From assembly GCA_030054035.1 (NCBI GenBank), contig JASGCS010000001.1, forward strand, positions 342,280 to 406,279: a stretch of DNA of 64,000 bases, written 5' to 3'. Shown here piece after piece: positions 659-63,899 of this stretch; positions within the stretch are counted from its first letter, which is position 1, and each line of letters starts with the position of its first letter. The notes beneath the pieces are model-generated. The model had not been told where the DNA came from, ran no database searches, and saw nothing but the letters and a program-made list of their open reading frames with translations. The DNA is from Candidatus Methylacidiphilales bacterium (GTDB lineage Bacteria; Pseudomonadota; Gammaproteobacteria; JASGCS01). The translations under genes and the position numbers were made by a program.

Positions 659-1213
659 TTAACGTTCGCTTCTAAATGTCACTCTATGATATTTAGATAT
701 TCCATATTTAGATATCATTTCTTTATGTTTTTTAGTTGGATAACCTTTGTGAAGATGGAAGTGATATCTTGGTTCAAAGTAGCTAAGCTTTGACATCACT
801 CTATCTCTGTATACTTTTGCGACAATAGAAGCTGCAGATACAGCAGGTTCTAGCATATCCCCTCGAATCAGTGGAATAATATTTCTATTTTCAGGAAGCG
901 GGGAAAAAATCCCATCAACATAAACTTTAATTCCGGATTGATAAACAAGTTGGATAGATTTTCTCATTGCCAGTAAACTAGCTTGCAAAATATTTATTTT
1001 ATCGATTATCTTGGGTGAGATTTCAATAACTGACCAGGAAATTGCGTTTTCTAATATTTGATTAAAGTAATAAATTCTTTTCGTTGGGCTAAGCGCTTTA
1101 GAGTCTTTAATCTTTTCAAAAATTTTTGGATATGGAAAAGGCAACACAACTGATGATGCTACCACTGGTCCCGCTAGACACCCTCTACCCACTTCATCGC
1201 ACCCACAAATCAT
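659..1213 (-). CDS. rnhB: Ribonuclease HII
   Basis: 184 aa; GCDEVGRGCLAGPVV active-site region, DSK, YPT motifs; sits between lpxA and dnaE. Confidence 0.9.
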   Translation of the reverse strand: MICGCDEVGRGCLAGPVVASSVVLPFPYPKIFEKIKDSKALSPTKRIYYFNQILENAISWSVIEISPKIIDKINILQASLLAMRKSIQLVYQSGIKVYVDGIFSPLPENRNIIPLIRGDMLEPAVSAASIVAKVYRDRVMSKLSYFEPRYHFHLHKGYPTKKHKEMISKYGISKYHRVTFRSER

Positions 1214-1229
1214 ACAATATTAGATTGCT

Positions 1230-2039: not shown

Positions 2040-2040
2040 T

Positions 2041-2499: not shown

Positions 2500-2509
2500 A
2501 GTAGTTACA

Positions 2510-3508: not shown

Positions 3509-3541
3509 TGATTTTAGTATACAATAGAAAAATAATACTGA

Positions 3542-5899
3542 TTAAAATCCTGACCCAATGGAAAATTGAAATTCTTGGATATTTGCTTTATCTTCTGGGT
3601 AATTTTTTAACGGTTTAGCGTAACTAAATAACAGAGGTCCGATTGGCGTTACCCATACCATTCCAATACCAATATCGTATCTTAAAGTGGCAAAATTAAA
3701 TGTAGAGTATTTTGAAGATAAATTTCCAGCATCGATAAACGCAACAATTCGTAAAGGGTTTTCACTTGGGGGAGCGTTACCAATCGCAGGTTTTTTAGGA
3801 TCAAAGTAAATTTCTAATGAGCTATATAGTGAAAAATCACCTCCAATTGAGTTACCAAAAACATCTTTTGGACCTAATCCATATGGTTCATAGGCTCTTA
3901 GATTTGAAATACCACCCAAATATTCCTTATCAAAAATTGGAAGTTCATCTAATTTTTCACCGTACTGATTTCTTTTAATATTTGAGTAAAGCAATCCTTG
4001 AGTAACAGAATGTTTTGTTAACAAAACAATTCTTTCACCTAACGGCTGGTAATACTTAAAATCTAAAGAATGTTTCAAGTACGAAGGATTGGTGTTTGAA
4101 TGATAAAGCGAAAAATTATAACTGAATTGAGAACCAATGTCTGGAAATAAAGTCCTGTTTCTAGTATCATGTGAATACGATAACCCTAGCGTTAAATATT
4201 TATACGTATTGCCATACGTGAGTACATAATTACTAAATTGGTCTGAAGTTGATCCAGCCGCTGATAACTTTTGATCTTTATAGCCAGGCAGCACGGTAAA
4301 ACTTGAATATTCAGTTATTGGGATGCTCCATCCAAAATTGAAAACCGAACTTCCTAAAAGGTATGGGACGATTGTAGAAACTGTGCTTGAGTATTTTGCC
4401 ACATTAATTTTAGATGTTGAGATTGAAGTAATAAAATCAATTCCGTCTTCAGTGAAATATGAAATTCTATAAGATGCGCTAGCTTGCTGCTGGACTTGGC
4501 TAAACCCCAATGATAATGAAATCGAGTCACCTGTATTAACAAAATTATCCCGCGATAAAGAAAAATTTAAATTTAATCTATTTGCCTGTGAGTATCCAAC
4601 CTGAAAAGAGAAATTTCCAGACTGTCTCTCTTGAACAGTAAATGTAACATCCACGAGATGAGAAATACCTGGTACTTTATCTAGAGTATATGAAACCTCA
4701 GAGAGATAGGTTAACCGTTGTAATCGTTCTTTTGATCTTTCAAGCAAGCTTTTGGAATAAGGCGCACCTTCAAACTGTCTCATTTCCCTACGCAATACAG
4801 AATCAATAACAGAATTATTATTAGCAAAAGTAATTCTTCTAACAATTATTTTACTTCCAGGATTTACTATAATTTTTAACCGGACAGATTTACTACTCTC
4901 ATCTAAAATGCTTGTGTATTTTGTTTCTGAGTAAGCGAATCCCATATCAGAAAGTAAAGAATTTATTGCATTAGTGCTTAATGTTAGTAGTCGTTGTGAA
5001 AAATATGTTTTATTTTTAATATATATAAACCTATGCAAATCATTTATTGAAAACTCAGACGATTCATAGTTAATTAAAATAGCATCAACTGATTCCACCG
5101 TATATCGATCACCCTCAAAGAGAGTAATAGAAATTTCAAGCCCGTCCCGCTCCGGAGTAAGAGTTACAATGGTTGATTTTATTTTAAAACGCAGGAAACC
5201 ATTATCAAGATACCATGATTTTAGAGCTTCAATATCACCTTCAAGCTTTCTCTTTGAGTATCGATTATTTTTATTTGCAGGATCAAGAATATCAGCAACT
5301 TGTAAAGAGAATAACTCGAGTAAATTAGATTTTGTATAATTTTTATTCCCGATTATGTTAATCCTCTTAATGATGGCAGGATCCCCTTCTGTTATTTGTA
5401 TAATAATTTTTTTACCACCTTGGCCAATATCTGTTATCTCTAAGTCAACTTTTGCATTGTATCTTCCTTCGTTGTAGTAAGCTTTTTTGATTTCTTTACC
5501 AATTACTTCAAGAATACTTTTATTGAATATTTCACCCTTAGCAATTTGGGCATTTTTTAGATTTTCTTCTAGAATTTTAGTCTCTATGAGACTATTGCCC
5601 TTTATTTCAACACCAACTATTGTAGGTCTTTCTTGAAGTTCAATATAAAGAATGGAGTTTTCATGTTTAATAATAATATCTTCAAAATACTTAAGCGAAT
5701 ATAGTTTTTGAATTAAAGAACCTAAAGATTGCTTATTAATAACACCTCTTTTTGGTAAACCAACCAAAGTCTCTAAATAAGAGGTCGGAATTCTAACGTT
5801 CCCTCTATAAACAATTGAGTTATATTCAAAACTCTCAGCATTTGAAAATGCTGGATTTAGCACACATATTAGGGAAATAGTTAAAAAAATTAAACGCAT
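3542..5899 (-). CDS. bamA: Outer membrane protein assembly factor BamA
   Basis: 785 aa, signal peptide, POTRA-like N-terminal region, C-terminal beta-barrel ending in aromatic residue (…IGSGF); synteny dxr-cdsA-uppS upstream. Confidence 0.9.
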   Translation of the reverse strand: MRLIFLTISLICVLNPAFSNAESFEYNSIVYRGNVRIPTSYLETLVGLPKRGVINKQSLGSLIQKLYSLKYFEDIIIKHENSILYIELQERPTIVGVEIKGNSLIETKILEENLKNAQIAKGEIFNKSILEVIGKEIKKAYYNEGRYNAKVDLEITDIGQGGKKIIIQITEGDPAIIKRINIIGNKNYTKSNLLELFSLQVADILDPANKNNRYSKRKLEGDIEALKSWYLDNGFLRFKIKSTIVTLTPERDGLEISITLFEGDRYTVESVDAILINYESSEFSINDLHRFIYIKNKTYFSQRLLTLSTNAINSLLSDMGFAYSETKYTSILDESSKSVRLKIIVNPGSKIIVRRITFANNNSVIDSVLRREMRQFEGAPYSKSLLERSKERLQRLTYLSEVSYTLDKVPGISHLVDVTFTVQERQSGNFSFQVGYSQANRLNLNFSLSRDNFVNTGDSISLSLGFSQVQQQASASYRISYFTEDGIDFITSISTSKINVAKYSSTVSTIVPYLLGSSVFNFGWSIPITEYSSFTVLPGYKDQKLSAAGSTSDQFSNYVLTYGNTYKYLTLGLSYSHDTRNRTLFPDIGSQFSYNFSLYHSNTNPSYLKHSLDFKYYQPLGERIVLLTKHSVTQGLLYSNIKRNQYGEKLDELPIFDKEYLGGISNLRAYEPYGLGPKDVFGNSIGGDFSLYSSLEIYFDPKKPAIGNAPPSENPLRIVAFIDAGNLSSKYSTFNFATLRYDIGIGMVWVTPIGPLLFSYAKPLKNYPEDKANIQEFQFSIGSGF

Positions 5900-5902
5900 A
5901 TT

Positions 5903-7099
5903 TTATCTTACTTTTTTTACAACTTCTTCGGTTTTAGCAAGGGTTTCTTTATAAAGTTCGATCAAATCTATAAAACTTGTTACTGATTTATTGGTATCAG
6001 TTACTACCCTTTCGATGATTGGAATGATTGCATTGAATGGTATTTTACCACTTAAAAATGAATCAACAGCAATCTCATTGGCTGCAGTTAACGCGACAGT
6101 TGAACAATCACCATTTGCAAGAGCCAGATAGCAAAGTGTGATAGATGGAAATCTAATTTGATCCACTTCTTCAAAACACATAGAGTTTAACACTTCAACG
6201 GTGATGCTTTTTTTATCTGAATTATTTAATCGTGTTTCAAATATTCCATAGGCTATAGGTATTTTCATGGTTGGATAATACATGTTAATCAATACACTTC
6301 CATCAACAAAAGATACAAATCCATGCACCAGACTTTGCCTGTGGATTAAAGTCTTTATTTGATTTGGTTTCAAAGTAAATAAACGGCAACACTCAATTAT
6401 TTCAAGGCCTTTATTTATTAAGGTGGCTGAATCGATAGATATTTTTTTACCCATTTTCCATGTAGGATGATTTAAAGCATCTGCTATTTTTACATGCTCA
6501 AGTTCTGATTTTGATAACGAAACAAAAGGGCCACCACTTGCTGTAATGGTAACTGTCTCAATTTCAGGGGAGCTCTTTAAACAGCTTCTCCATAGAGCAT
6601 TGTTAATACATTGATAAATAGCATGTGGTTCACTGTCAAGTGGTGTTATTCTTGCTTTTCCAAGTCTAACTGCATCAATAAAATAACTCCCACCAACAAC
6701 TAATGACTCTTTATTTGCAATCAATAGATGTTTGCCTCTAAGCGCTAACTGGTAATATAATTGAAGAAAATCAATCCCACTGGTAGCGCAAATAATATGA
6801 GTTACATGACTAGCGGAACATATATCTAGTATTTCAGATTGTTGGGTAACTATCTGACAAGTTAAATTTAGTTGTTTAATCAATTGCTTGCAAGGCTCTA
6901 CTGAATTTTGATGTGTGACAGCTAAATATTTTGGAGCTACCTTGGTTAACAAATGGCTTAAAGCATTCCAATTTTTATGTACTGACAAAAGTTCAATTGA
7001 ACATTTTCTTGTTTGATTGGCTAGAACTACTTCAATTGTTTGCACGCCAATAGATCCGCTTGCGCCTAAAATGGAAATACATAACTCAGTTTGTGTCAT
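5903..7099 (-). CDS. dxr: 1-deoxy-D-xylulose 5-phosphate reductoisomerase
   Basis: 398 aa; ILGASGSIG NADPH-binding N-terminus; synteny. Confidence 0.9.
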   Translation of the reverse strand: MTQTELCISILGASGSIGVQTIEVVLANQTRKCSIELLSVHKNWNALSHLLTKVAPKYLAVTHQNSVEPCKQLIKQLNLTCQIVTQQSEILDICSASHVTHIICATSGIDFLQLYYQLALRGKHLLIANKESLVVGGSYFIDAVRLGKARITPLDSEPHAIYQCINNALWRSCLKSSPEIETVTITASGGPFVSLSKSELEHVKIADALNHPTWKMGKKISIDSATLINKGLEIIECCRLFTLKPNQIKTLIHRQSLVHGFVSFVDGSVLINMYYPTMKIPIAYGIFETRLNNSDKKSITVEVLNSMCFEEVDQIRFPSITLCYLALANGDCSTVALTAANEIAVDSFLSGKIPFNAIIPIIERVVTDTNKSVTSFIDLIELYKETLAKTEEVVKKVR

Positions 7100-7111
7100 A
7101 TTGTAATTGGG

Positions 7112-7753
7112 TCAGATAAAAAAATAGAAGTAAAGTGGAGCAACAATAATTAGACTATCAAATCTATCTAAAAAACCTCCATGACCATAAAATAATTTTC
7201 CGCTATCTTTTACATTTGCCATCCTTTTTAATAAACTTTCTAATAAATCTGCTACAACAGCAATAATTGCCAAAAATAAAACTTTAAACATAACAACATA
7301 AGAAAAAGCAACATTATTTAGAGACATTAAAATTATAGTAACTAACACAACTGTACTTACGATACCAATTATTGCTCCTTCGACTGTTTTACCAGGACTA
7401 ATAAACGGTGCCAACTTTCGACGACCAAGGCTTTTTCCTCCTAGGTAACTCATCACATCACAACAAATTGTTAAGGCAAAAAGACCAAGTGCTTGTTTTA
7501 TATTACCAAGTAATAATATTCCGATACAGAATACCGACAAGGTGATCCATGAATATATAAAAAATAATAAAAATAATTTACTTTGTATCTGCATATTATT
7601 TTTTATTACAAGTGCGCTTACCTCAAATAAAAGTATAAAGAGTACGGTTAATAAAAATAATCCAGTTAATAACGTAGATTTAAAGTAGATAATTAAAAGA
7701 AAAATAAAAGTGAAGACTGCTGCACCTATGATTCGCTTTGCTAACTCGCTCAT
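7112..7753 (-). CDS. cdsA: Phosphatidate cytidylyltransferase
   Basis: Multi-pass membrane protein with C-terminal CdsA signature (GKSLGRRKLAP…SPGKTVEG…DSGKLFYGHGGFLDRFDS). The track ORF runs to 7870; I place the start at the internal Met at 7753, just past the uppS stop. Confidence 0.8.
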   Translation of the reverse strand: MSELAKRIIGAAVFTFIFLLIIYFKSTLLTGLFLLTVLFILLFEVSALVIKNNMQIQSKLFLLFFIYSWITLSVFCIGILLLGNIKQALGLFALTICCDVMSYLGGKSLGRRKLAPFISPGKTVEGAIIGIVSTVVLVTIILMSLNNVAFSYVVMFKVLFLAIIAVVADLLESLLKRMANVKDSGKLFYGHGGFLDRFDSLIIVAPLYFYFFI

Positions 7754-7760
7754 AATTGAA

Positions 7761-8432
7761 TTATAATATTTTGCCAAAAGTTCTTGTTTGCTTGCTATAC
7801 CATTGAATTGCTTTAGTAAATTCAATTTCATTAAATTCAGGCCACAATATATCTGTGAAATATAACTCACTATAGGCTAACTGCCATAATAAAAAATTAC
7901 TAACTCGTTTTGAACCTCCTGTTCTAATTAATAAATCTATATCTGGAATAGCGGAAGAAGGTAATAATTTTCTTATTTCTAACTCTGAGGGATTTATAAA
8001 TTTTTCATTTGTCGCACGCAAGATAGCTTGAGAGATATCCCAACGGCCACTATAATTAAATGCAATGGTTAAATCTAAATTGGTACCATTGCTGGTAATT
8101 TGGACAACCTTACTTAGTTCAGATTGATCTAGGTCGCTTAGTATTGATAGGTCACCTATAAACTTAATTTTAATACCTTGAGCTACTAATTGAGGTATTT
8201 CTTGAGCTATAGTATCAACAAGTAATTTACAAATTGCCAATACTTCGGGATGTGGACGTTGGTTATTTTCTATACTAAATGCAAATAACGTTAGATGTTT
8301 AATTTTTACACTAATTGCAGTAGAAATTACAGAGCGAACAACTAAAACTCCTTGGACATGTCCTTCACTTCTAAGTAACGAATTATGTTGTGCCCATCTT
8401 CCGTTACCATCCATTATAATCGCTACATGCAA
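7761..8432 (-). CDS. uppS: Undecaprenyl diphosphate synthase
   Basis: 223 aa; HVAIIMDGNGRWA cis-prenyltransferase motif; synteny. Confidence 0.9.
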   Translation of the reverse strand: MHVAIIMDGNGRWAQHNSLLRSEGHVQGVLVVRSVISTAISVKIKHLTLFAFSIENNQRPHPEVLAICKLLVDTIAQEIPQLVAQGIKIKFIGDLSILSDLDQSELSKVVQITSNGTNLDLTIAFNYSGRWDISQAILRATNEKFINPSELEIRKLLPSSAIPDIDLLIRTGGSKRVSNFLLWQLAYSELYFTDILWPEFNEIEFTKAIQWYSKQTRTFGKIL

Positions 8433-21425: not shown

Positions 21426-22057
21426 GTGAATAATCAAATTATAGCTAATACAATCATTGAAGGGAACTACGCCCCTCTCATCAAAGACAATGTAGACACT
21501 GATCAAATTATACCATCTTCGGAAATGAAACTACCCTCTAAACGAGGTCTAGGTATAGGTTTATTTGCAAATCAAAGATACAACAACACTATCACACGTG
21601 ATCCAAATCCCCTTTTTATCCTTAATCAACCTAATTTTCAAGAAATAACTATTTTGGTGTCAGGGTTGAATTTTGGTTGCGGCTCATCAAGGGAGCATGC
21701 AGTATGGGCATTAAAATTTATTTTTCCAAAAACAGTGCTTATTATCTGAAGATCAATGTCTATGGAGATTCTATTTTTACCTACTGTATTGCAAATCTCA
21801 TTCTCCCAATCATTGTTTCGAAAGATGTCGTTTTGCTGTTTTCTGAAAATACAGTAGGTAAAAATAGAATCTCCATAGACATTGATCTTCAGATAATAAG
21901 CACTGTTTTTGGAAAAATAAATTTTAATATAGAAAAAGAAGTGAAAAATAAATTTATTCTGGGTGAAGATTCGATATCAAGTCTCCTCAATAATTTTACA
22001 AGCACCATTGATGAGCATGAAAGAAAAAATAAAATAACTAAACCTTGGTTATTCTAA
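21426..22057 (+). pseudogene. leuD: 3-isopropylmalate dehydratase small subunit, frameshifted
   Basis: ORF 21426..21749 carries the LeuD N-terminal part (DNVDTDQIIP…NFGCGSSREHAVWAL); ORF 21677..22057 in another frame continues with LeuD middle and C-terminus (GIKIY…, ISIDIDLQ…, ILGEDSISSLL…DEHER…KPW). The frame switches around 21705-21720. No leuC adjacent. Confidence 0.7.
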
Positions 22058-26019: not shown

Positions 26020-26643
26020 TTATACCGAACCTGCGTCGCCAGAAGCAACTCTAGTGCTCAAAACCTTATCGACAATACCATACGCACAAGCCTCAGTACT
26101 GTTAAGAAAATAATCTCTGTCAGTATCTTGTTCAATTTTTTGAAGAGGTTGTTCAGTATGCTCAGCCAATATAGTATTCAGCACAGCTTTTATTTTAATA
26201 ATTTCTTGGGCATGAATACTAATATCAGAAGCTTGGCCTTGAAAGCCTCCCAAGGGTTGATGGATCATTATTCTGGAATTGGGTAAAGCAAATCTTTTCC
26301 CTTTTTTACCTGACGCTAAAAGCAAAGCTCCCATACTTGCAGCCTGACCAATACATAGTGTGCTGATATCAGGTGAAATAAATTTCATAGTATCATATAT
26401 ACACATACCCGCAGACACCGATCCACCTGGAGAGTTTATATAGAGATAGATATCTTTTTTTGGATTTTCTGATTCCAAAAAAAGCATCTGGGCTACAACT
26501 ACATTCGCAACATAATCATCAATAGGCCCTACTAAAAAAATTAAACGCTCACGTAACAATCTAGAGTAGATATCAAATGCCCTTTCACCTCGTGAGGATT
26601 GCTCTACGACAATTGGAACATACTGTGAAAAAGTTTTATTCAT
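26020..26643 (-). CDS. clpP: ATP-dependent Clp protease proteolytic subunit
   Basis: 207 aa; catalytic Ser region GQAASMGA, His region IMIHQPLGG. Confidence 0.9.
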
Positions 26644-27686
26644 TTATTATTAGTATCTATGAGATCACTTAATTTAACTGGTTTACTGACTATCTTAACT
26701 CTATTAAATATATGGTCTACAAATTCTATTTCAAGGGCAATAGTAAAAAAGTAATTTCTCCAATAATCATTCTGCACTAATTGCCTTATGGCTTTTTCAG
26801 GATCTTGGGTGCTTTGTGCAGTTTGAGATATTAATTTTTTAATAACTTCTTGTTTTGGAATGATGTTAAAATTATTTACTATATGTTTCAAAATCCAGTC
26901 TGACTTTAATCGTTTCTCAATTAAAGTTTTAGTAAAGGAATCCAGTTCAACATGCTTATCACATGGCTCTTCGGCTTTATGAGTATGACCTGCTTTTTCA
27001 TGTAATTCATGTCCTAAACGACGCTCTTCAGTTGTTATTGCTTTAGCTAAGATTGAAGGAGGTAGTGAAAATTGAAATTCGTTAAGTAAAGCTTCAAGAA
27101 TTGATTCTTTATTTTTCTGAAACAATTTAAATTCGACTTCTTGGAGTAACGTTTGCTTAATTGCTAAATCAAATTTTTGCTCGGCGTCATCACCAATAAA
27201 GCCCAATTTTTCAAATGCTATTTGACTTTGATCATTACCATGTTCTTTAATAACTTTTTCTTTCATTGAAGTAAAATCGCTTTGATTTATTGAGTACTCA
27301 AACTTGGTAATTTCTAAGCTTTCTAATGAAAGTAAATTAATTTCGGGTGAAAGTTCATAAAAATAATCTATGCTTAAAATTTTATTTTTTATATCTAGTT
27401 TTGGATTATACATCGGCTGAGTTGCAAGAACAATGTTTTTATTTGAAGCCAAATAATCGCTCCAACATCGTAAGGAAATATCTTTAATTGCTTGATCTTG
27501 TAAGGTTTCGGTATATTTCTTTAGTAATATTTCATCTGGAACTTTACCTTTTCTAAAACCATCAATCGCAACTGTTTGTTTCAAATGGACTAGCTGTTTT
27601 TGCATAGATTTATCAAACTCTTCCCAAGAAACAGAAAATACTACTTCTCTCTCTAGTTGCGATATTTCTTTAACTTCATAACTCAT
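26640..27686 (-). CDS. tig: Trigger factor, apparently lacking the central PPIase domain
   Basis: N-terminal ribosome-binding signature GFRKGKVP present; 348 aa versus about 430 aa in typical bacteria; tig-clpP-clpX-lon synteny. Confidence 0.8.
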
Positions 27687-27699
27687 ATTATTTCCTAGT

Positions 27700-27784
<85 letters not shown>

Positions 27785-27796
27785 TTTAATTCAAAC

Positions 27797-27872
<76 letters not shown>

Positions 27873-27903
27873 ACTTTTTTTTATTTTACCCCTAATTATA
27901 GAA

Positions 27904-27980
27904 TGGGGTGAGCGATGGGGCTCGAACCCACGACCACTGGATCCACAATCCAGAGCTCTACCGACTGAGCTACGCTCACC
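27904..27980 (-). tRNA. tRNA-His (anticodon GUG) with G-1
   Basis: Reverse complement GGTGAGCGTAGCTCAGTCGGTAGAGCTCTGGATTGTGGATCCAGTGGTCGTGGGTTCGAGCCCCATCGCTCACCCCA; extra 5' G typical of tRNA-His. Confidence 0.85.
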
Positions 27981-27995
27981 ATTGTATCAATAGTA

Positions 27996-28071
27996 TGGCG
28001 CGCCCGGCAGGAATCGAACCTGCAACCACCGGCTTAGAAGGCAGGTGCTCTATCCGTTGAGCTACGGACGC
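27996..28071 (-). tRNA. tRNA-Arg (anticodon UCU)
   Basis: Reverse complement GCGTCCGTAGCTCAACGGATAGAGCACCTGCCTTCTAAGCCGGTGGTTGCAGGTTCGATTCCTGCCGGGCGCGCCA; resembles argU-type tRNA. Confidence 0.8.
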
Positions 28072-28079
28072 ATGTATTA

Positions 28080-28156
28080 TGGTCGGGGCAGAGAGATTCG
28101 AACTCCCGACCCTCTGCTCCCAAAGCAGATGCGCTACCAGACTGCGCTATGCCCCG
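28080..28156 (-). tRNA. tRNA-Pro (anticodon UGG)
   Basis: Reverse complement CGGGGCATAGCGCAGTCTGGTAGCGCATCTGCTTTGGGAGCAGAGGGTCGGGAGTTCGAATCTCTCTGCCCCGACCA. Confidence 0.85.
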
Positions 28157-28182
28157 AGTATAATATCGTACGATATTATACT

Positions 28183-29082
28183 ATGCCTAAAAATAAATCA
28201 ATTGATAGCATTATGCTTGATGGAAATTTTTGTTCAGAGCAGATTCTAAAGGAACTACGCACTTGGATTAAACAATTACTTTTAAATGGCATTAGATTGC
28301 CATCTTTAACTGTGTTTCTAATTGGTGATAATGACGCGAGTAAAATTTATGTGCAGAAAAAAATACAAGCTTGCAACTCATTAGGTATTCAATGTAATTT
28401 AAAACAATTTTCAAATAATATTAAAATTGAAGAAATATTATCAGAAATTGATTATTGCAACACTGACCAAAACACTGATGGAATACTTGTACAATTACCT
28501 TTGCCAAGCCACTTATCCACACTTGAAATCTGTTCACGAATTTCTCCCTCTAAAGATATAGATGGTTTTAACCCTCAAAATGTTGGGAGGTTGGCATTAC
28601 GATCTCCGCAGTTAAGACCCTGTACCCCCAAAGGAGTGATGGCACTTTTAGATTTCTATAAAATTTCACCTGAATCAAAACATGCAGTAGTGGTTGGAGT
28701 ATCAAATCTAGTTGGAAGACCGCTTGCTTTGGAGCTTTTATTAAAGGGCGCTACAGTTACTTGCTGCCATAGATTAACCAATAAGTTAGAAGAGCATGTC
28801 AAAAAGGCTGATTTGCTTTGCGTTGCAACTGGCAAAAGAAATATTATTGATTGTGAGTGGATTCCAAGGCAATGCACAGTAATAGATATTGGCATAAATA
28901 GAGATAGTAGCGGTAAAATTGTTGGCGATCTTGATCAAGAGAAATTGGTAGGAAATGTATACGCATACACACCTGTACCTGGAGGGATTGGGCCAATGAC
29001 GGTAACAATGGTGTTAGTAAACACACTCGAGGCACATAGCACACACCTAAATTTACAGTTTATATCTCCAACTAGTACCTAA
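28183..29082 (+). CDS. folD: Bifunctional methylenetetrahydrofolate dehydrogenase / methenyl-THF cyclohydrolase
   Basis: FolD motifs (DGILVQLPLP, DVDGFNPQNVGRL, PCTPKG, VGRPLALELL, TPVPGGIGPMTV). Start set at the ATG at 28183; the track extension to 28045 overlaps two tRNA genes. Confidence 0.85.
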   Translation: MPKNKSIDSIMLDGNFCSEQILKELRTWIKQLLLNGIRLPSLTVFLIGDNDASKIYVQKKIQACNSLGIQCNLKQFSNNIKIEEILSEIDYCNTDQNTDGILVQLPLPSHLSTLEICSRISPSKDIDGFNPQNVGRLALRSPQLRPCTPKGVMALLDFYKISPESKHAVVVGVSNLVGRPLALELLLKGATVTCCHRLTNKLEEHVKKADLLCVATGKRNIIDCEWIPRQCTVIDIGINRDSSGKIVGDLDQEKLVGNVYAYTPVPGGIGPMTVTMVLVNTLEAHSTHLNLQFISPTST

Positions 29083-39492: not shown

Positions 39493-40092
39493 TTAATTCA
39501 GTTCTTTTCGCTCCATTAAAGCACAGGCCAAAGTAGTACTATCTACATATTCTAGCTCACTACCCGCAGGTAATCCATGGCTAATTCTAGTTATTTTTAT
39601 TTTCAGATCACTGGTTAACTCTTTTATGTAATTTGCCGTGGCTGAACCCTCTACAGTTGCATTTGTTGCGATAATCATTTCTTTCACCCCCCCCTGCAAT
39701 ACTCGAGAGCGTAGAAGTGGCATACCTAACTCATAGGCGCCAATACCATCTAAAGGTGATAAATGACCCATTAACACAAAATATAAGCCATTAAATAGAC
39801 CGATTTGTTCTATTAATAGCACATCGATTGGGTTTTCCACAATACATAGTATAGATTTGTCGCGTTTAGACTGAGAACAAATTACACACACTTCGGAAGT
39901 TGTAAAATTTCTACAAGAAGAGCAGCATGAGATTGAATCCATGGCGAATTCAATAGCTTTAGCTAGGCTTTTTCCACCAGGTCGATTTTTTTGAAGCAGG
40001 TGGTAAGACATTCTAACAGCAGACTTATGGCCAATGCCAGGAAGCATTGTAAAAGCAACTATTAGATCCTCAAGCACAGAATCACTTTTCAT
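39493..40092 (-). CDS. recR: Recombination protein RecR
   Basis: 199 aa; C4 zinc finger (CxxC…CxxC), Toprim region; follows dnaX. Confidence 0.9.
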   Translation of the reverse strand: MKSDSVLEDLIVAFTMLPGIGHKSAVRMSYHLLQKNRPGGKSLAKAIEFAMDSISCCSSCRNFTTSEVCVICSQSKRDKSILCIVENPIDVLLIEQIGLFNGLYFVLMGHLSPLDGIGAYELGMPLLRSRVLQGGVKEMIIATNATVEGSATANYIKELTSDLKIKITRISHGLPAGSELEYVDSTTLACALMERKELN

Positions 40093-40093
40093 A

Positions 40094-41302
40094 CTATTTG
40101 AATCTCTTTTGATGCTCTGTAATAGTTACTGTTGATAATGATGCTATTTGCTCAACAACAGGATGTGAGTTATTAGTAATTTTTGAATGTGTTGTAAATG
40201 GGCTAGAATTAGAATACTCTTTTGCACCCCAACTTTTATTTACTAATGCTATTCGTAGTATAGAGTTTATAACGGCAGATTTTCCATTTGGATAATACGA
40301 ATAATTTTTTCTTGTGTCAAGTACAATTTGCATAAACACTTGTAATAAATGTGGCTGCAATTTTTGAAGCATCTCAGCAATTAAATAATGAGTATTATTT
40401 GTTTGATTAGAATAAGGCGCTAACGATGCTTGTTGCAATTCTTGAATTATAGTATCAAGTATCTGCAAAGGTTCACCGGAATAAGTGTCAATCATTTTAA
40501 TAGCTGATTCAAAATCACTTTTGGAATCATTTACTACAAATTGAAAAAACAATTGCACTAACGATTGAGATGAAGGGCCTAAGATAGTTTTAACAGACTC
40601 TAAAGTAATTCCAGTATCTGAAGCAAATAAAGCTGTTTCCAAAATATTTAGAGAATCTCTAATGCTTCCATTTGCAGCCTCAGCAATTGCAATAAGAGAT
40701 TCATTAGTATAATCAATTTTTTCATTCTGTAAAACCTTCGAAAGAACTGAAACGATCATATCAATTGGAACTGGTCTGAAATGAAATAGTAGGCATCTCG
40801 ACCTAATAGTTTCAGGTATCATTTCTAACTCAGTTGTGGCAAAAATAAAAACTAGATATGGCGGAGGCTCTTCTAGAGTTTTTAGTAGAGCATTAAAACT
40901 ATGTTTTGTTAGCATATGAACTTCGTCTAATAAAATTATTTTTTTTCTACTTATTGACGGTGGATAAATTGCAGTTTCCAGTAACTCTCTAGTTTCTTCG
41001 ACCTTGGAGTGTGAAGCAGCGTCTAATTCAATAAAATCGATATAAGAATTTTCATCACAAGAAATACAATTTCTGCACTTTAAACAAGGTGTAGGTGTGA
41101 TCCCATTTTCACAATTTAAACTTTTTACCAATATTCTTGCGAGGCTAGTTTTTCCAACTCCTCTAGTGCCTGAGAATAAATACGCATGGTGAACTTTTTC
41201 TACTTCAAGCGATTTGGAAATAGGGATAACAATGTGCTCTTGCCCGACCATATCAGTCATAATCTTTGGTCTATATGTTCTTGCAAGCGCAATGTGATTC
41301 AT
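40094..41302 (-). CDS. dnaX: DNA polymerase III subunit gamma/tau, gamma-length only
   Basis: 402 aa; Walker A GTRGVGKTS, zinc module CLKCRNCISC, SRC motif; ends directly before recR with no tau-specific C-terminal domains. Confidence 0.85.
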   Translation of the reverse strand: MNHIALARTYRPKIMTDMVGQEHIVIPISKSLEVEKVHHAYLFSGTRGVGKTSLARILVKSLNCENGITPTPCLKCRNCISCDENSYIDFIELDAASHSKVEETRELLETAIYPPSISRKKIILLDEVHMLTKHSFNALLKTLEEPPPYLVFIFATTELEMIPETIRSRCLLFHFRPVPIDMIVSVLSKVLQNEKIDYTNESLIAIAEAANGSIRDSLNILETALFASDTGITLESVKTILGPSSQSLVQLFFQFVVNDSKSDFESAIKMIDTYSGEPLQILDTIIQELQQASLAPYSNQTNNTHYLIAEMLQKLQPHLLQVFMQIVLDTRKNYSYYPNGKSAVINSILRIALVNKSWGAKEYSNSSPFTTHSKITNNSHPVVEQIASLSTVTITEHQKRFK

Positions 41303-43596
41303 AGTTTTTCTTGTGATGATTCAATTTTTGATTGAATGTATTTCGTAATATTAAAAATACTTCTCGAGGAAACAGTGTTGGTAAGTATGTGTGCAGGATA
41401 CGCACATCCAGCCAATATTGAGGCTATAACATCTTGATTTGCAGATGTGGCTTTAAGTAGTCTAAATGAGATACTTGCAGAATCCATGTCAGGCATAATA
41501 AGCAAATTAGCATTTTCATGCATCAACTTATTGTTAGCAAGTAACTCACTTCTAATTGAATAATGCAACGCAGCATCGGGCATCATTTCTCCATCAATTG
41601 CTATTGTGGGATATTTTTTTTGTAAAATATTTACGGCATCGCTCATTTTCACCGCTTGAGGTAGATTAGAGCTTCCAAAACTTGAATGCGATAATAAAGC
41701 AATTTTAGGCATCAACTTAAATTGACGCACCACATCAATTGATAACTCAGTTATTTCTACTAATTCTTGCACAGTTGGTTGAACTGTAACTTGAGTATCG
41801 GCAATAAAAATTGTCTGGTCTTTAAGAAACGCAACACTGACTGAACAATAATTTTTTATACCATTTTCTTTTCCTAGTATTTGATCAATATAAAAGAGAT
41901 GGTCTTTGAACGCTCCAGTGGTACCACACACTAAAGCATCACCTTCACCCTTTTTAAGTAAAAGTGAGCCAATTACAGTTTGATTGGTTAGTAGTAATTT
42001 TCTTGCATTTGGGATTGATACTCCTTTTCTCCCAGCAATTTCATGATAACTTTCCCAATATTCTCTATACCGTGGATCATCTTGCGGATCAACTATCTGA
42101 AAATCTTTATCGACTTGTATTCGGAGATTAAGTCTATTAATATACTGTTCAATAACAGTTTTTCTTCCAACAAGAATAGGGAACGATATTTTATTTTCAA
42201 TTGTTGACTGTGCGGCACGTAACACTCTGTGGTCTTCACCTTCAGAAAAGATAACCTTAATTAATTTTGCGCTTTTTTTTGTTCTTAGCCCTAAAGCACT
42301 CCAAGAAGTTCTGGTCACAATTCGTTCAAGTGATAACCGGTACTGTTCAATATCCACAATTGGTTTTGTAGCCACACCATCTTTCATTGCGGCTAAAGCA
42401 ACCGCAGGGGCAATTTCCATCACTAGTCTAGAATCAAAAGGCTTAGGTAAAATATAGTCTCTTCCAAACACCATTTCATTTCCACCATACGCCCCAGCTA
42501 TAAATTCATCTACTTCTCTAGTGGCTAATTGTGCAATAGCTTTTGCACACGCAATTTTCATTCCATGAGTAATTTTAAGTGCACCTACGTCTAAAGCTCC
42601 ACGAAAAAGGAAAGGAAAGCAAAGCACATTGTTTACTTGATTTGGAAAATCAGATCTACCTGTAGCGCAAAGTGCGTCTGGTCGCACTGCAATTACATCA
42701 TTTGGGTTAATTTCTGGAATAGGGTTTGCCAAACAAAACAATATTGGATTGGGAGCCATGGTTTTTACCATTTCTTGAGTGCAAATATTACCCACTGATA
42801 ATCCAAGAAAAACATCACAACCATTAATAGCTTCAGATAACGTTCTTAATGATGTTTGCAAAGCAAACTGTTCTTTATGAGGAGGTGTAATTTTTGCATC
42901 TCTGCCTTTGTAAATAACCCCAAACTCATCGCACGCAATTATATTTTCCTTTAAGACCCCAACAGACTTGAACATATTTAAACATGAAGTACCTGCTGCA
43001 CCTATCCCCACCGCACACACTTTTACTTTTTGCGGATCTTTTTGAACAACACTCAATGCGTTAAGAAATGCCGCGACCACTACAATTGCTGTGCCATGTT
43101 GATCATCATGAAAAACTGGAATATTCATTCTTTCTTGCAATATTCTTTCTATGTCAAAACATTCAGGGGATTTTATATCCTCTAAATTTATTCCACCAAA
43201 TGTTGGCTCTAATGAAGACACAATATCACAAAACGCTTCAACAGAAGTTTGTTTTATTTCTAGATCAAAAACATTAATATCTGCAAATTTTTTAAAAAGC
43301 ACTGCCTTACCTTCCATTACTGGTTTTGCAGCATATGGTCCGATATCACCCAATCCTAACACTGCTGTACCATTTGTGATCACACCAACAAGATTACTTC
43401 TAGAAGTATACGTATTTATTAATGTTTGATCTTTTGATATTTCAATACATGGCTCAGCAACACCAGGTGAATATGCTAACGATAAATCATGACTAGTATG
43501 CATTGACTTTGTTGGACAAATTTCAAGCTTACCAGCTGGGAACGAAGAGTGGTACTCTAATGCTTGTTTTTTAAATATTTTCTTTGCATCATCCAT
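41299..43596 (-). CDS. maeB: NADP-dependent malic enzyme with C-terminal phosphotransacetylase-like domain
   Basis: 765 aa; N-terminal malic enzyme region (YSPGVAEPC…), C-terminal PTA-like half. Confidence 0.8.
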   Translation of the reverse strand: MDDAKKIFKKQALEYHSSFPAGKLEICPTKSMHTSHDLSLAYSPGVAEPCIEISKDQTLINTYTSRSNLVGVITNGTAVLGLGDIGPYAAKPVMEGKAVLFKKFADINVFDLEIKQTSVEAFCDIVSSLEPTFGGINLEDIKSPECFDIERILQERMNIPVFHDDQHGTAIVVVAAFLNALSVVQKDPQKVKVCAVGIGAAGTSCLNMFKSVGVLKENIIACDEFGVIYKGRDAKITPPHKEQFALQTSLRTLSEAINGCDVFLGLSVGNICTQEMVKTMAPNPILFCLANPIPEINPNDVIAVRPDALCATGRSDFPNQVNNVLCFPFLFRGALDVGALKITHGMKIACAKAIAQLATREVDEFIAGAYGGNEMVFGRDYILPKPFDSRLVMEIAPAVALAAMKDGVATKPIVDIEQYRLSLERIVTRTSWSALGLRTKKSAKLIKVIFSEGEDHRVLRAAQSTIENKISFPILVGRKTVIEQYINRLNLRIQVDKDFQIVDPQDDPRYREYWESYHEIAGRKGVSIPNARKLLLTNQTVIGSLLLKKGEGDALVCGTTGAFKDHLFYIDQILGKENGIKNYCSVSVAFLKDQTIFIADTQVTVQPTVQELVEITELSIDVVRQFKLMPKIALLSHSSFGSSNLPQAVKMSDAVNILQKKYPTIAIDGEMMPDAALHYSIRSELLANNKLMHENANLLIMPDMDSASISFRLLKATSANQDVIASILAGCAYPAHILTNTVSSRSIFNITKYIQSKIESSQEKL

Positions 43597-47428: not shown

Positions 47429-48955
47429 ATGGTACATTCATTTTCAACAAAAATACCGGCAATTTATGTCGGTATTAATCGTAGTTTTCCCGCCAATGGT
47501 TGTCTAGTTGCGCTTATTAGAGAAGATGCGATTATTGATGAAAAAAGTTACGACTACAATACAAGGCAATGTATTAAGACTACATTACATATGGGCGATA
47601 TGCCAAAGGGATTCGCCATAACTCATACTACCCCACTCTTAATACCTAGAAATATCAAGCAGAAAAGGATTGTGATGGTGCAATTAACAAAACAATCTAT
47701 TTCAAGCTATTTTAAACTTATTGATCTAAGTCATAAAATCGCAAAAGCAATTATTAATACAAATGCAAAACATGTGATTTTGAATTCTGGAATTATTTTA
47801 CAGGAATATAACAAATATTCTTTAGATAAAAATGAAAATGAAATTCAAGAATCCGATGTGATTTCAATATTTTTAAGAGAATTGCTTCTTCAACAACTTT
47901 TTTCTAAAAATAAATCAATAGAATCGATAAATTTTATTGTAAGTGCTATAAAAAAAGAACATTCCTCAGTAATTGCAAACACTGTAGCAATTTCAAGAGC
48001 AATGCATTGGTCAATTGAATTATCAAATTTACCAAGCAATAAATGCACCCCAAAAATCCTTGCCCAAGAAGCTAAAAAGATATGCTCTCAATTCACTAAT
48101 CTAACGTTAACTATCCATAGTACAAACTCTATAAATAAATTGAACATGGGAGGTGTATTGGCGATATCAAAAGGTTCTGTGAATGCTCCATATTTTATTG
48201 AAGTGTCTTACAAACCAAAAAAATCAACCTCTAAAAAACCCATTGTATTAGTTGGAAAAGGAGTTACATTTGACAGTGGTGGAATTTCATTAAAGCCTTC
48301 TAAACAAATGGACGAAATGAAATATGACATGTGTGGCGCCTCTACAACGCTTGCTACAATCTTTGCATGTGCATACGCTAAATTACCTATACATGTACAG
48401 GTACTAGTTCCAGTTGTTGAAAATATGCCAAGTGGCTCCAGTATAAAACCTGGAGACGTAATCACAACACATTCTGGTAAAACAATTGAAATACTAAACA
48501 CCGACGCTGAGGGGAGAGTAATTCTTGCGGATATGCTTAGTTACGCTGAAAATTTTAAACCAAGATTTCTCATTGATGTTGCTACTTTAACTGGAGCATG
48601 TATAACTGCGCTAGGTAGAGATTTTTGTGCGGTAATCAGTAATCAGCAAGAATTAGCCGATACGCTAATTCAATCCGGACGAAAAGCATTTGATTGCTGC
48701 TGGCAATTACCACTTCATGAGCCTTATCGTGAATCATTGCACAGTAACTTTGCTTCTATTGCAAATATTGGAAATGGCGAGGCTGGAACAATTATTGGTG
48801 CAGTATTTTTAAAAGATTTTGTCAATCCTAAAACTCCTTGGGCACATCTTGATATCGCTAGTGTTGCATGGAAATCTGGTATAACAAAGAGCGCTACTGG
48901 TAGACCTATTCCATTACTTTATGCCTTTATACAATCCAAACTTGATTACAACTAA
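47429..48955 (+). CDS. pepA: Leucyl aminopeptidase (M17)
   Basis: 508 aa; M17 signature NTDAEGRVILAD and metal-ligand region VGKGVTFDSGG. Confidence 0.9.
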   Translation: MVHSFSTKIPAIYVGINRSFPANGCLVALIREDAIIDEKSYDYNTRQCIKTTLHMGDMPKGFAITHTTPLLIPRNIKQKRIVMVQLTKQSISSYFKLIDLSHKIAKAIINTNAKHVILNSGIILQEYNKYSLDKNENEIQESDVISIFLRELLLQQLFSKNKSIESINFIVSAIKKEHSSVIANTVAISRAMHWSIELSNLPSNKCTPKILAQEAKKICSQFTNLTLTIHSTNSINKLNMGGVLAISKGSVNAPYFIEVSYKPKKSTSKKPIVLVGKGVTFDSGGISLKPSKQMDEMKYDMCGASTTLATIFACAYAKLPIHVQVLVPVVENMPSGSSIKPGDVITTHSGKTIEILNTDAEGRVILADMLSYAENFKPRFLIDVATLTGACITALGRDFCAVISNQQELADTLIQSGRKAFDCCWQLPLHEPYRESLHSNFASIANIGNGEAGTIIGAVFLKDFVNPKTPWAHLDIASVAWKSGITKSATGRPIPLLYAFIQSKLDYN

Positions 48956-49391
48956 ATTTTTATTTTATAAAGACACTGACAAAAATAAAATGTTAGAAAA
49001 ACAATTGTGTGAGTACTGTGCTCAATCTATCAAACAACCCAGTGCGCTACTGTACATACTTTGCCATGAACTTGATTTTTCTTATGTTAGTAACATGTTG
49101 TATACAACAAAACAGATAAGTTTACTTGTGCATGAAAAAGAACATCACGAGGACGTGAATCTAGTGAAGATAATAATTGGAAATGGCTCGACACTTCATA
49201 ATTCTAATTACTCTCAAATAATTTTGTATGTTTCAAATAATTCAAATTATTTACCAATAACCATTCCCAACTCATTGACTGAGATAAGATTATTTGCAAA
49301 ATTAGAAGAGAGACAAAAACAAGTATCCAAACTTTATTTCGATTATTTTAAATCATGTTTAATTAAAATTAATTCGTACACCTTTGACTAA
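48921..49391 (+). CDS. holC: DNA polymerase III chi subunit (probable)
   Basis: About 150 aa, loosely colinear with HolC (FLFYKD…QLCEYCAQ…LLYILCHE…) and in the pepA-holC-valS position; the real start may be the TTG at 48942. Confidence 0.5.
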   Translation: MPLYNPNLITTKFLFYKDTDKNKMLEKQLCEYCAQSIKQPSALLYILCHELDFSYVSNMLYTTKQISLLVHEKEHHEDVNLVKIIIGNGSTLHNSNYSQIILYVSNNSNYLPITIPNSLTEIRLFAKLEERQKQVSKLYFDYFKSCLIKINSYTFD

Positions 49392-49397
49392 TACAGT

Positions 49398-49589
49398 ATG
49401 AAAGAAGAATCCCCAATCATTCCAACGCTTCATAAAACCATAAAAAAAACAATAGCTAATTCTCCATACATATCGGAAAAAGAATTATATGAGATTGTTC
49501 ATCCGATTCTTGAAAAGTATATTAAACAAATTACCAAGGAAATAGTTCAAAACGTTTTAAGTATATATAAAAAACAAAATGAAAGATAA
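49398..49589 (+). CDS. Hypothetical small protein (63 aa)
   Basis: ATG-initiated ORF filling the holC-valS gap; Lys/Glu-rich, predicted helical; its stop overlaps the valS start by 11 nt. No recognisable family. Confidence 0.3.
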   Translation: MKEESPIIPTLHKTIKKTIANSPYISEKELYEIVHPILEKYIKQITKEIVQNVLSIYKKQNER

Positions 49590-62019: not shown

Positions 62020-63097
62020 TTTTGTCAATTAAACTCTTAAATTCATTAAAAATATATTTAAAATCATGGGGGCCTGGATTGGCTTCAGGGTGACCTTGGA
62101 TAGCTATTAAAGGGGCTGTAGCTGAAACAAATCCTTGCAATGAGCCATCAAACAAAGATCTGTGAGTTGCAATTAGCGATGATGTGAGGGTTGTCTCCAG
62201 AATCTCAAAACTATGATTTTGACTCGAAATTACACTTTGGTGAGTTCTTAAATCTAAAATTGGATGGTTAATACCGTGATGTCCATATTTCATTTTTTTT
62301 GATTTAGCTCCTAATGCAAGTGCAATAATCTGAAAACCCAAACAAATTCCAAGCAAGGGTAATTTATGCGAGACACAATAATGCACTATAGGATGAACAT
62401 AGTTACATGGTTCTGGGTCCCCGGGTCCGTTTGATAAAACTACCCCAACTGGATCATTGCTAAGCAATTCATCTAATGTTGTTTTTGCAGGAAAACAAAC
62501 TACTTTGAATCCGAGAGTTGCTAAAAAATGTAATATTGATTTTTTGACCCCCAAATCTATAACAGCAATAATTTTTTTATTCGTAGACTCAGGGTTAAAA
62601 TAATATTTTTCCTTAGTTGTTACTTGAGAAGCTAAATCTAAACCTGATAATCCTTTATAATTCCTTAACGCATCATACGCGTCGTCTAAATCAGAATTAG
62701 TACGACAGTCCAAGCAAGCTCTTAAAGAACCATGAGTTTTAATTAATTTAACTAAAAATCTGGTATCTACGCCTTCTACAGCTGGAATGGAATTCTTGAT
62801 AAGAAAAGAGGATAGGCTCGTTAAACATCTCCAACTACTAGGTTGATATGTGTACTTGTGTACCAACAAGCCGCTATTATGAATTATATTTGATTCATTA
62901 TCTTCTAAATTAATACCTGTATTACCAATATGGGGATAAGAAAATACAATGAACTGGCCCTTATATGATGGGTCAGTGCAAACCTCTTGATACCCGCTCA
63001 TAGCTGTATTAAACACTAATTCACCTAGAGCCATCACGGGAGCACCAAAGCTGATGCACTCTATGATAATATTCTGATCAATGATTAATTTTGCCAT
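62003..63097 (-). CDS. carA: Carbamoyl-phosphate synthase small subunit (glutamine amidotransferase)
   Basis: GATase class I catalytic triad context (GICLGFQ, HPE); N-terminus aligns from Met 63097 (MAKLIIDQ…[13 protein letters not shown]); track start is 63118. Confidence 0.9.
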
Positions 63098-63899
63098 TGT
63101 ATTGTGGGTAAAACTCATCTATCCAGTTTAATATTTGTTTGCAATTTTCGAATCTATCATCTGGATTTTTAGCTATACATAATTGCAGAAAATTATCAAA
63201 CGGTGATTGGACATCTATAAATTTGTCATCACTATTAATGAGCTTAGTTTTTAATACTTCTTCTATTGTAAGATCGTTAAATAATTTTTTACCGGTAAAT
63301 ATTTCATAAAAGACGCAACCCAAACTATATATATCAGTACGCTCGTCATAACATTGCAATAAAGCTATCTGTTCAGGGGCAAGATAACTAGGAGTTCCAA
63401 TAACAGTACCTGGTTTGGAACGTAGTTTTATATTATCTCTTTCAATTGAAATTCCAAAGTCAAACAAACAAAGTGATCCATCTTCACGCAAGCCAATATT
63501 TGTTGGATTTAAATCTAAGTGTAAAATACCCCTTTCATGAATGTAATTTAATGCCGTGACAAGTTGGATCAAATAAATAATTGGATCATACTTAACCTGA
63601 TTAAAATGTAAGAAATTTTTCAGATCCCCTTTTGCTAGATACTCTGTAACCAAAAATATAACGCTTTTAGTCACTCCATAATCATACAGCTTTACTATAT
63701 TGCTGTGTTCTAGTAAAATCAACATTTGGACTTCATGAAACAAACGACCCTGATCATTTCTAGTATTAGGTAATTCATCTCTCTCAACACATTTAATTGC
63801 AATTTGAAGTGAGTCTGAATTTCTAGTGCCTAGAAAAATATTTCCATGTGAACGATTGGGCAGTAGTCCAGATGTGGTGTAACCAGGTATCTTTAACAT
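63078..63899 (-). CDS. Eukaryotic-like (Hanks-type) Ser/Thr protein kinase, kinase domain only, atypical catalytic loop
   Basis: 273 aa; subdomains in order: IAIKC (II Lys), HEVQ (alphaC Glu), HLDLNPTN (catalytic loop), DFG, GTPSYLAPE, DIYSLGCVFYEI; no TM, PASTA or FHA modules. Confidence 0.7.
   Translation of the reverse strand: MLKIPGYTTSGLLPNRSHGNIFLGTRNSDSLQIAIKCVERDELPNTRNDQGRLFHEVQMLILLEHSNIVKLYDYGVTKSVIFLVTEYLAKGDLKNFLHFNQVKYDPIIYLIQLVTALNYIHERGILHLDLNPTNIGLREDGSLCLFDFGISIERDNIKLRSKPGTVIGTPSYLAPEQIALLQCYDERTDIYSLGCVFYEIFTGKKLFNDLTIEEVLKTKLINSDDKFIDVQSPFDNFLQLCIAKNPDDRFENCKQILNWIDEFYPQYNGKINH

Follow-up and report, generated by a model that had tools for sequence, protein, structure and literature searches.

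A gamma-length dnaX directly upstream of recR in a rare gammaproteobacterial lineage nearest to the Legionellales

The dnaX locus and the protein it encodes

We analysed a 64,000-nt stretch of contig JASGCS010000001.1 (the window; its full length is meant throughout) with respect to dnaX, the gene of the clamp-loader ATPase of DNA polymerase III (Pol III). Its longer product, tau, is regarded as the organiser of the bacterial replisome, binding the helicase DnaB through domain IV and the polymerase subunit alpha through domain V. We observe that the dnaX of the window encodes a protein of gamma length that consists of domains I-III and a short tail only, and that recR follows it directly, with no ybaB in between. 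The genes and junctions concerned are the following.

40094..41302, minus strand: dnaX, 402 amino acids (aa), ATG start, gamma-length clamp-loader ATPase (domains I-III and a short tail)
39493..40092, minus strand: recR, 199 aa, matched by TIGR00615 and by Pfam RecR_HhH, Toprim_4 and RecR_C
41299..43596, minus strand: maeB (NADP malic enzyme with a PTA-like domain), 765 aa, from the open reading frame (ORF) listing, Pfam and NCBIfam
40090..40096, minus strand: dnaX TAG, 1-nt spacer and recR ATG, read from the sequence; the usual site of ybaB

The reading frame of dnaX is intact, with no interruption in the ORF list of the window. On inspection of the sequence, the TGA of maeB and the ATG of dnaX share bases as ATGA (...CTATGAATCAC, cTATGAat), while the order at the 3' end of dnaX is TAG, a single spacer base and the ATG of recR (...TTCAAATAGtATGAAAAGT, AAATAGtATGAAA). 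The assignment of recR is firm (TIGR00615, 231 bits versus a cut-off of 163). An earlier note on this DNA had given the same coordinates for dnaX and the recR start and the same 402-aa size, and had described both the overlap of the dnaX start with the maeB stop and a missing ybaB at the dnaX-recR junction; the ORF list and the sequence agree with it on all of these points, the last in the form of the 1-nt spacer.

E. coli gamma (DnaX residues 1-430), which results from a programmed -1 frameshift, has domains I-III in common with the window DnaX, and both proteins (431 and 402 aa, respectively) are without the alpha- and DnaB-binding domains. E. coli, however, always makes tau too, whereas here the short form is directly encoded and is the sole product of the gene. 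A programmed frameshift giving gamma and tau from one dnaX was considered and rejected: where domain III would pass into domain IV the sequence has neither a slippery A_AAA_AAG heptamer nor any long run of A, no tau frame lies downstream, and recR begins 1 nt past the stop. The sole A8 run of dnaX is at codon 119, in frame. A CA_AAG is present at the 3' end of the gene (window 40097-40115, minus strand), where a -1 shift would enter recR and give a DnaX-RecR fusion. Such a fusion was also rejected, given that the frame relation of dnaX and recR varies among related loci (same frame in L002, +2 in L003, +1 in L004); the fusion potential at this junction looks accidental and is not conserved in the sequences compared.

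Within the protein, three parts can be delimited.

40628..41302, minus strand: DnaX domains I-II (aa 1-225), AAA+ module with zinc module and lid, from Pfam and conserved residues
40211..40627, minus strand: DnaX domain III (aa 226-364), the collar oligomerising DnaX with delta and delta', from TIGR02397, alignment to PDB sequences and AlphaFold2 (AF2)
40097..40210, minus strand: DnaX C-terminal tail (aa 365-402), S/T/N-rich and predicted disordered, from AF2

Pfam recognises DNA_pol3_delta2 (aa 21-178) and DNAX_ATPase_lid (aa 183-225), and a Pfam scan of the protein gave no match to DNA_pol3_gamma3 (PF12169), tau_4 (PF12168) or tau_5 (PF12170). Over aa 4-350 the NCBIfam model TIGR02397 (dnaX_nterm) gives 356 bits, its cut-off being 250, and of the 655 positions of the gamma/tau model PRK07994 only positions 1-371 are covered. 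In a phmmer comparison with PDB sequences, E. coli gamma/tau residues 2-356 align with aa 2-351 of the window protein, at 38% identity to E. coli gamma over that range. The Walker A motif (G45-T52), Walker B residues (D126/E127) and SRC arginine finger (S168-R169-C170) are invariant in an alignment of 56 DnaX sequences, as are the zinc ligands C64/C73/C76/C79 and the sensor 2 arginine R215. An AF2 model built from the same 56-sequence alignment has a mean predicted local distance difference test score (pLDDT) of 88.6, with confident helices up to H340-364, and a Foldseek search with it returns the gamma/tau chains of the E. coli clamp loader at target-normalised TM scores of 0.75-0.82 (0.78-0.82 for 8vam_D, 3glf_D and 1jr3_A).

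Beyond domain III the protein runs on for only about 40-50 aa, and domains IV (DnaB-binding) and V (alpha-binding) are not present. In the model the tail contains two short helices, at 381-390 and 396-401, and its pLDDT is about 47-56; it terminates in a short amphipathic segment with basic residues, and has no family match in Pfam or NCBIfam. Judged by these alignments and the model, DnaX is a functional-looking clamp-loader motor subunit with domains I-III only, in agreement with what the earlier note had proposed from the position of the stop codon and now backed by the Pfam, TIGR02397 and PRK07994 domain models. It keeps all that is needed to join delta and delta' and to load beta. The annotation "gamma/tau" is misleading for dnaX genes as short as this one.

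The short gene in relatives and its origin

An identical protein is deposited at NCBI as MDI9347248.1, on a 476,275-bp contig of a metagenome-assembled genome (MAG), and is also encoded in the independent Logan assembly of SRR23378605; in the collection searched it is found on three contigs, the Logan and 476-kb NCBI ones among them. Its three nearest homologues in 5.8 billion proteins, P0002 (398 aa), P0003 (380 aa) and P0004 (392 aa), are 46-49% identical to it and equally short. Their loci share the synteny xerD-dsbC-maeB-dnaX-recR-HIT-orn-rhodanese-degP-lepA, with ybaB absent from the dnaX neighbourhood in all three. P0004 is encoded on a 1,823,282-bp ENA contig (ERZ25072151 contig_34).

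These relatives bear directly on whether the short gene could be an artefact of assembly or frameshifting, which the earlier note had named as a refutation of its own claim, or else a pseudogene in decay. The A8 run at codon 119 gives such a reading some footing, AT-rich genomes being prone to homopolymer errors, and a real frameshift is known from the tau-only region of Blochmannia dnaX (PMC3017870). The window ORF, however, is uninterrupted with all its motifs intact, there is no coding space for tau ahead of recR and no tau-like frame, four assemblies, made independently and from different samples, share the architecture at 46-49% identity, and the identical protein stands on three contigs. 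The conservation of gene and synteny in four divergent assemblies, together with the intact motifs, excludes this explanation, which we regard as effectively refuted.

The lineage is rare. HMMER against 1.84 billion 50%-identity representatives yielded a single clade representative (702 bits), the next match scoring 397 bits, and all but one of the rest of the top 150 matches are at least 459 aa long. This exhaustive representative search gave one clade cluster only, and hence no larger clade in which conservation of the tail could be tested. Among the GTDB species representatives, a scan with two peptide patterns, both of which occur in the window DnaX itself, found no clade member, the best match being 42% identical. 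On these sequence comparisons the clade is both rare and isolated, and the truncation of dnaX is as old as the clade's common ancestor.

The best named matches of DnaX are gammaproteobacterial and those of Pol III alpha (DnaE) belong to Legionella and Legionellales, whereas the NCBI label of the source MAG (that of MDI9347248.1 and MDI9347207.1) is Methylacidiphilales, i.e., Verrucomicrobiota. The gene runs of this organism include frr-uppS-cdsA-dxr-bamA-lpxD-fabZ-lpxA-rnhB-dnaE (dnaE lying just past the edge of the window), tig-clpP-clpX-lon, lepA-lepB-rnc-era-recO, pepA-(holC)-valS and carA-carB-greA-rlmE-ftsH-folP-glmM-tpiA-secG-tRNA-Leu, which we take to be the classical gammaproteobacterial order as in E. 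coli. Because both gene order and best matches are gammaproteobacterial or Legionellales-like, the Methylacidiphilales label is almost certainly wrong and probably reflects mis-binning or misclassification; the organism itself is gammaproteobacterial, nearest to the Legionellales.

In the outgroup, ybaB and then recR follow a dnaX that encodes tau in full length and gives a domain V signal, as seen in Coxiellaceae (L010), in the gammaproteobacterial MAGs L023 and L025 and in L088, the locus of P0005, which at 45% identity is the closest full-length tau. More generally, the full-length tau proteins of Legionellales, Coxiellaceae and other gammaproteobacteria are 38-45% identical to the window DnaX over domains I-III and likewise have recR downstream; unlike the window gene, they carry PF12169 and PF12170, are 500-690 aa long and have ybaB between dnaX and recR. 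Since tau domains IV-V and ybaB are contiguous in the ancestral dnaX-ybaB-recR arrangement, one deletion, from after domain III to the start of recR, could explain both losses, and we infer such a deletion as their origin.

The two losses are nevertheless separable. SAR86, a streamlined gammaproteobacterium, has recR straight after dnaX, overlapping it and without ybaB (L007-L021), yet its DnaX of about 494 aa still matches the tau domain V profile (E = 1e-9 to 1e-13), unlike that of the window; it is a case of independent ybaB loss from the dnaX-recR junction. Conversely, Ca. Pantoea edessiphila retains ybaB after a short dnaX, whereas here ybaB is gone along with tau.

Short DnaX proteins are known from other reduced genomes. 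Manzano-Marin and Latorre described a DnaX without PF12168 and PF12170 in reduced Serratia symbiotica as a "dwindling" gene (PMC5013485), and in Blochmannia the dnaX frameshift lies inside the tau-only region (PMC3017870). Our genome scan returned 80 loci, in some of which the DnaX ORF does not exceed 397 codons from stop to stop. Among gammaproteobacteria these are Ca. Erwinia haradaeae, the Trioza apicalis endosymbiont, Ca. Pantoea edessiphila, two Westeberhardia and five reduced Arsenophonus; to them come three genomes of the candidate phyla radiation (CPR), judged by length alone because the tau-V model was built from gammaproteobacteria. No tau domain V signal was found in any frame of the short gammaproteobacterial loci. 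For each insect symbiont with a short DnaX, the scan, limited to two peptide patterns, gave a single dnaX locus.

As in the window, DnaX ends soon after domain III in Serratia symbiotica STs/SCc, Arsenophonus, Westeberhardia, Erwinia haradaeae and the Trioza symbiont (361-397 codons at most between stops in the insect-symbiont genes), and these genomes share with the window an AT-rich, compact character and other domain losses. The insect symbionts are Enterobacterales, however, whereas the clade described here is Legionellales-like, with 36-42% identity over full-length matches, and their genomes measure 0.25-1.1 Mb, whereas the genome here is apparently much larger, a relative's contig alone reaching 1.82 Mb. 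The loss of tau in this lineage is independent of those in insect symbionts. A DnaX without tau is therefore already known from reduced genomes, and the present one is a new, independent case in another lineage.

The window shows its own marks of reduction. Its G+C content is about 33%, and genes abut or overlap, with junctions of -16 to +18 nt. The context of genome reduction is present in that the DNA is AT-rich, compact and given to domain shedding; yet the contig of a relative spans 1.82 Mb.

The trigger factor (window 26640-27686, minus strand; 348 aa) has Trigger_N at 1-142 and Trigger_C at 176-326 but is without the peptidyl-prolyl isomerase (FKBP) domain. By its domain matches it is a second domain-shedding protein in the same window.

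Pol III alpha, clamp loading and coupling at the fork

Three further genes are needed for the argument.

659..1213, minus strand: rnhB, the final window gene before dnaE
L085 8224-11715, past window position 1: dnaE (Pol III alpha), MDI9347207.1, 1163 aa, 3 nt after rnhB
48921..49391, plus strand: candidate holC (chi, clamp loader), 156 aa, between pepA and valS, weak Pfam match

DnaE is full length (PRK05673, 1018 bits versus a cut-off of 1002, aa 2-1139) and keeps the internal clamp-binding motif, with QNSLF aligned to E. coli alpha 920-924. Its C terminus, however, escapes Pfam: at E <= 1, Pfam gave no match to the OB domain (PF01336) or to DNA_pol_IIIA_C (PF20914, the C-terminal domain that binds tau) in the clade proteins P0121, P0122 and P0123, whereas both families score in the Fluoribacter DnaE (P0126) and in almost all of the 120 best matches. 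Within the clade, identity is 59-65% in the polymerase core, 12-34% in the OB domain and 16-28% in the C-terminal domain, compared with 20-48% and 20-37% for the latter two in outgroup pairs, whose cores are 64-72% identical. Between clade and outgroup the values fall to 13-19% (OB) and 9-20% (C-terminal domain).

The candidate holC aligns over aa 12-144 with positions 3-128 of the 135 positions of Pfam DNA_pol3_chi (E = 0.0016; 19.1 bits, under the gathering score of 25.4). Its place between pepA and valS is that of holC in E. coli too. A chi-like ORF lies at the same place in L002, and tblastn does not align it with the candidate of the window. A 63-aa ORF without homology lies 3' of the candidate (49398-49589, plus strand).

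The explanation that we prefer, at a probability of roughly 70%, is that of a lineage-wide tau-less clamp loader left by the loss of tau IV-V and ybaB and working at an uncoupled or loosely coupled fork. In an ancestor of a small, rare, AT-rich lineage near the Legionellales, the 3' third of dnaX (tau IV and V) would have been deleted together with the adjacent ybaB. What remained would be a fully functional motor subunit that corresponds to gamma of E. coli and is packed translationally between its neighbours maeB and recR. Beta clamps would be loaded by a DnaX3-delta-delta' (probably with chi) "gamma complex" in which the canonical tau domains are not there to bind Pol III alpha or DnaB. For access to primer termini alpha would depend on the beta clamp, a route suggested because alpha keeps the internal QxxLF clamp-binding motif. 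The fork would be uncoupled or loosely coupled, or coupled by other means, which may be tolerable for a slow-growing, probably host-associated bacterium. This explanation presupposes that tau is encoded nowhere else in the genome, and we infer from it, rather than observe, an uncoupled replisome.

Several points weigh against this explanation. A clade-versus-outgroup hhalign comparison of the DnaE C terminus gives 92.5% probability (E = 4.9e-7, 145 columns, 14% identity), the AF2 model of the C-terminal domain has a pLDDT of 81-90 over the last ~90 aa, and the best Foldseek matches of this part are the alpha chains 4iqj, 2hpi and 5fkv (probability 0.93-1.0, ~200 columns), among which 4iqj is the Taq alpha-tau_C complex. 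P0122 and P0123 are 28% identical in this domain, like outgroup pairs, which suggests that the C-terminal domain of alpha is still functional, possibly with a partner. The genome of the relative with the 1.82-Mb contig is also less reduced than those of the precedent insect symbionts, and outside the loci searched there may possibly be another dnaX, a separate gene for the tau C terminus or a ybaB that has moved. From E. coli it is reported that tau deprived of its C terminus no longer binds Pol III and that rolling-circle synthesis then declines, and that point mutants of it cause SOS induction and single-stranded DNA gaps (PMC11470591); gamma is without alpha- and DnaB-binding functions that are required for physiological rates, namely, alpha-binding, by which Pol III is chaperoned to new clamps, and contact with DnaB, by which unwinding is accelerated (PMC4756838). 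Against this stands the repeated loss of tau in slow-growing, host-associated or streamlined bacteria, and the cost must therefore be survivable.

An outright loss of alpha's tau-binding domain is refuted by hhalign, AF2 and Foldseek alike. The new point of this analysis is that the C-terminal OB and tau-binding domains of DnaE, unseen by Pfam in the clade, are still homologous and predicted to be folded. The docking domain of alpha has thus drifted far in sequence yet is, by prediction, folded, in a clade whose DnaX is without the alpha-binding domain of tau.

A folded docking domain raises the possibility that tau function comes from elsewhere, either from a full-length dnaX paralogue, a second dnaX having been suggested in the earlier note, or from a separate domain IV-V protein, the window gene supplying gamma only. 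In favour of this are the confident fold of the alpha C-terminal domain, its homology to the tau-binding domain and the 28% identity between P0122 and P0123. The short dnaX, however, occupies the ancestral locus directly upstream of recR in all four lineages, and the 120 best DnaX matches include, from the 476,275-bp and 1,823,282-bp contigs, the short genes but no second DnaX-like protein, although this is weak evidence. The closest full-length tau, P0005, was tried as a paralogue and ruled out by its different sample and normal dnaX-ybaB context. Duplicates of dnaX are unusual in bacteria, and the short-DnaX insect symbionts have one dnaX locus per genome (two-pattern scan). Closer to the gene, the 64-kb window and three related loci were translated in six frames, and every ORF of 30 aa or more was compared by phmmer with a sequence taken as E. 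coli YbaB and with five tau C termini; no tau C terminus or YbaB better than E = 0.4 was found there. A YbaB query from the nearest outgroup returned 9 candidates and 5 protein hits, none of the latter from clade contigs, a result that is uninformative. Altogether we consider a tau supplied from elsewhere unlikely.

A second possibility is that the DnaX tail of about 40 aa is itself a minimal tether, its amphipathic and basic end binding the remodelled alpha C-terminal domain or DnaB in place of domains IV-V. E. coli tau is said, after work by Jergic and colleagues from 2007, to touch alpha through an unstructured C-terminal peptide. All four DnaX proteins of the clade have 30-50 residues past domain III and end in a hydrophobic-periodic stretch followed by K/R, AF2 places the two short helices (381-390 and 396-401) in the tail, and the alpha C-terminal domain is kept, folded and strongly changed in sequence in the same clade. 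The conservation of the tail is weak, however, as those of the window protein and P0002 align unconvincingly with those of P0003 and P0004; its pLDDT is only about 50, it has no similarity to the tau C-terminal peptide consensus, four sequences are too few for covariation, and similar leftover tails are expected from any deletion. Given the folded, remodelled alpha domain, a rewired polymerase-helicase link, through the tail or through an unrecognised adaptor, can still be conceived of in the setting of a genome of about 1.8 Mb whose envelope genes for lipid A, Bam and Lpt are complete. Both the tether and the rewired link seem to us doubtful, slightly more so than tau supplied from elsewhere; if true, the clade would be a natural experiment in tau-independent replisome coupling.

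Returning to the preferred explanation, a clamp loader without tau, some likeness is offered by the replication factor C (RFC) of eukaryotes and archaea, which, like the window DnaX, combines AAA+ subunits with a collar and does not itself tether the replicative polymerase. Structural matches of the window DnaX to RFC were found with Foldseek (1iqp and yeast and human RFC chains), at only 18-24% identity. RFC systems are coupled via other replisome factors, none of which is known for this clade. The earlier note had asked how the replicase is coupled in an organism with such a DnaX; the question is legitimate but not new, since tau-less DnaX has been published (PMC5013485) and recurs in many of the reduced genomes that we scanned.

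Each independent lineage without domains IV-V would indicate that a gamma-only clamp loader is able to sustain a chromosome. The present lineage stands outside the insect symbionts and has an apparently mid-sized genome, and tau loss would therefore extend beyond extreme genome decay. A tau-less DnaX combined with a retained, diverged docking domain on alpha also offers a testable handle on the role of that domain without tau.

Further features of the window

The cluster uppS-cdsA-dxr-bamA-lpxD-fabZ-lpxA-rnhB, followed by dnaE, occupies window positions 659-8432 (minus strand) with intergenic gaps of a few bases. The genes rseP, skp and lpxB, which belong to the same cluster in E. coli, are absent from it.

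A eukaryotic-type Ser/Thr kinase of 273 aa (63078-63899, minus strand; Pkinase, E = 1.3e-43) is encoded just ahead of carA, whose start it overlaps. Kinases of this type often serve as host-directed effectors in Legionellales-like bacteria. Elsewhere (21426-22057, plus strand), a 107-aa ORF with an Aconitase_C fragment only is overlapped by a 126-aa ORF without a family match, and the former is possibly what is left of a decayed gene.

Positions 27700-28156 of the minus strand carry a cluster of genes for five tRNAs (Leu-tag, Lys-ctt, His, Arg-tct and Pro-tgg). The folD ORF (28045-29082, plus strand), whose GTG start at 28045 was set mechanically, runs across tRNA-Pro and tRNA-Arg; since the Pfam domain starts at aa 58, the gene probably begins downstream of that GTG.

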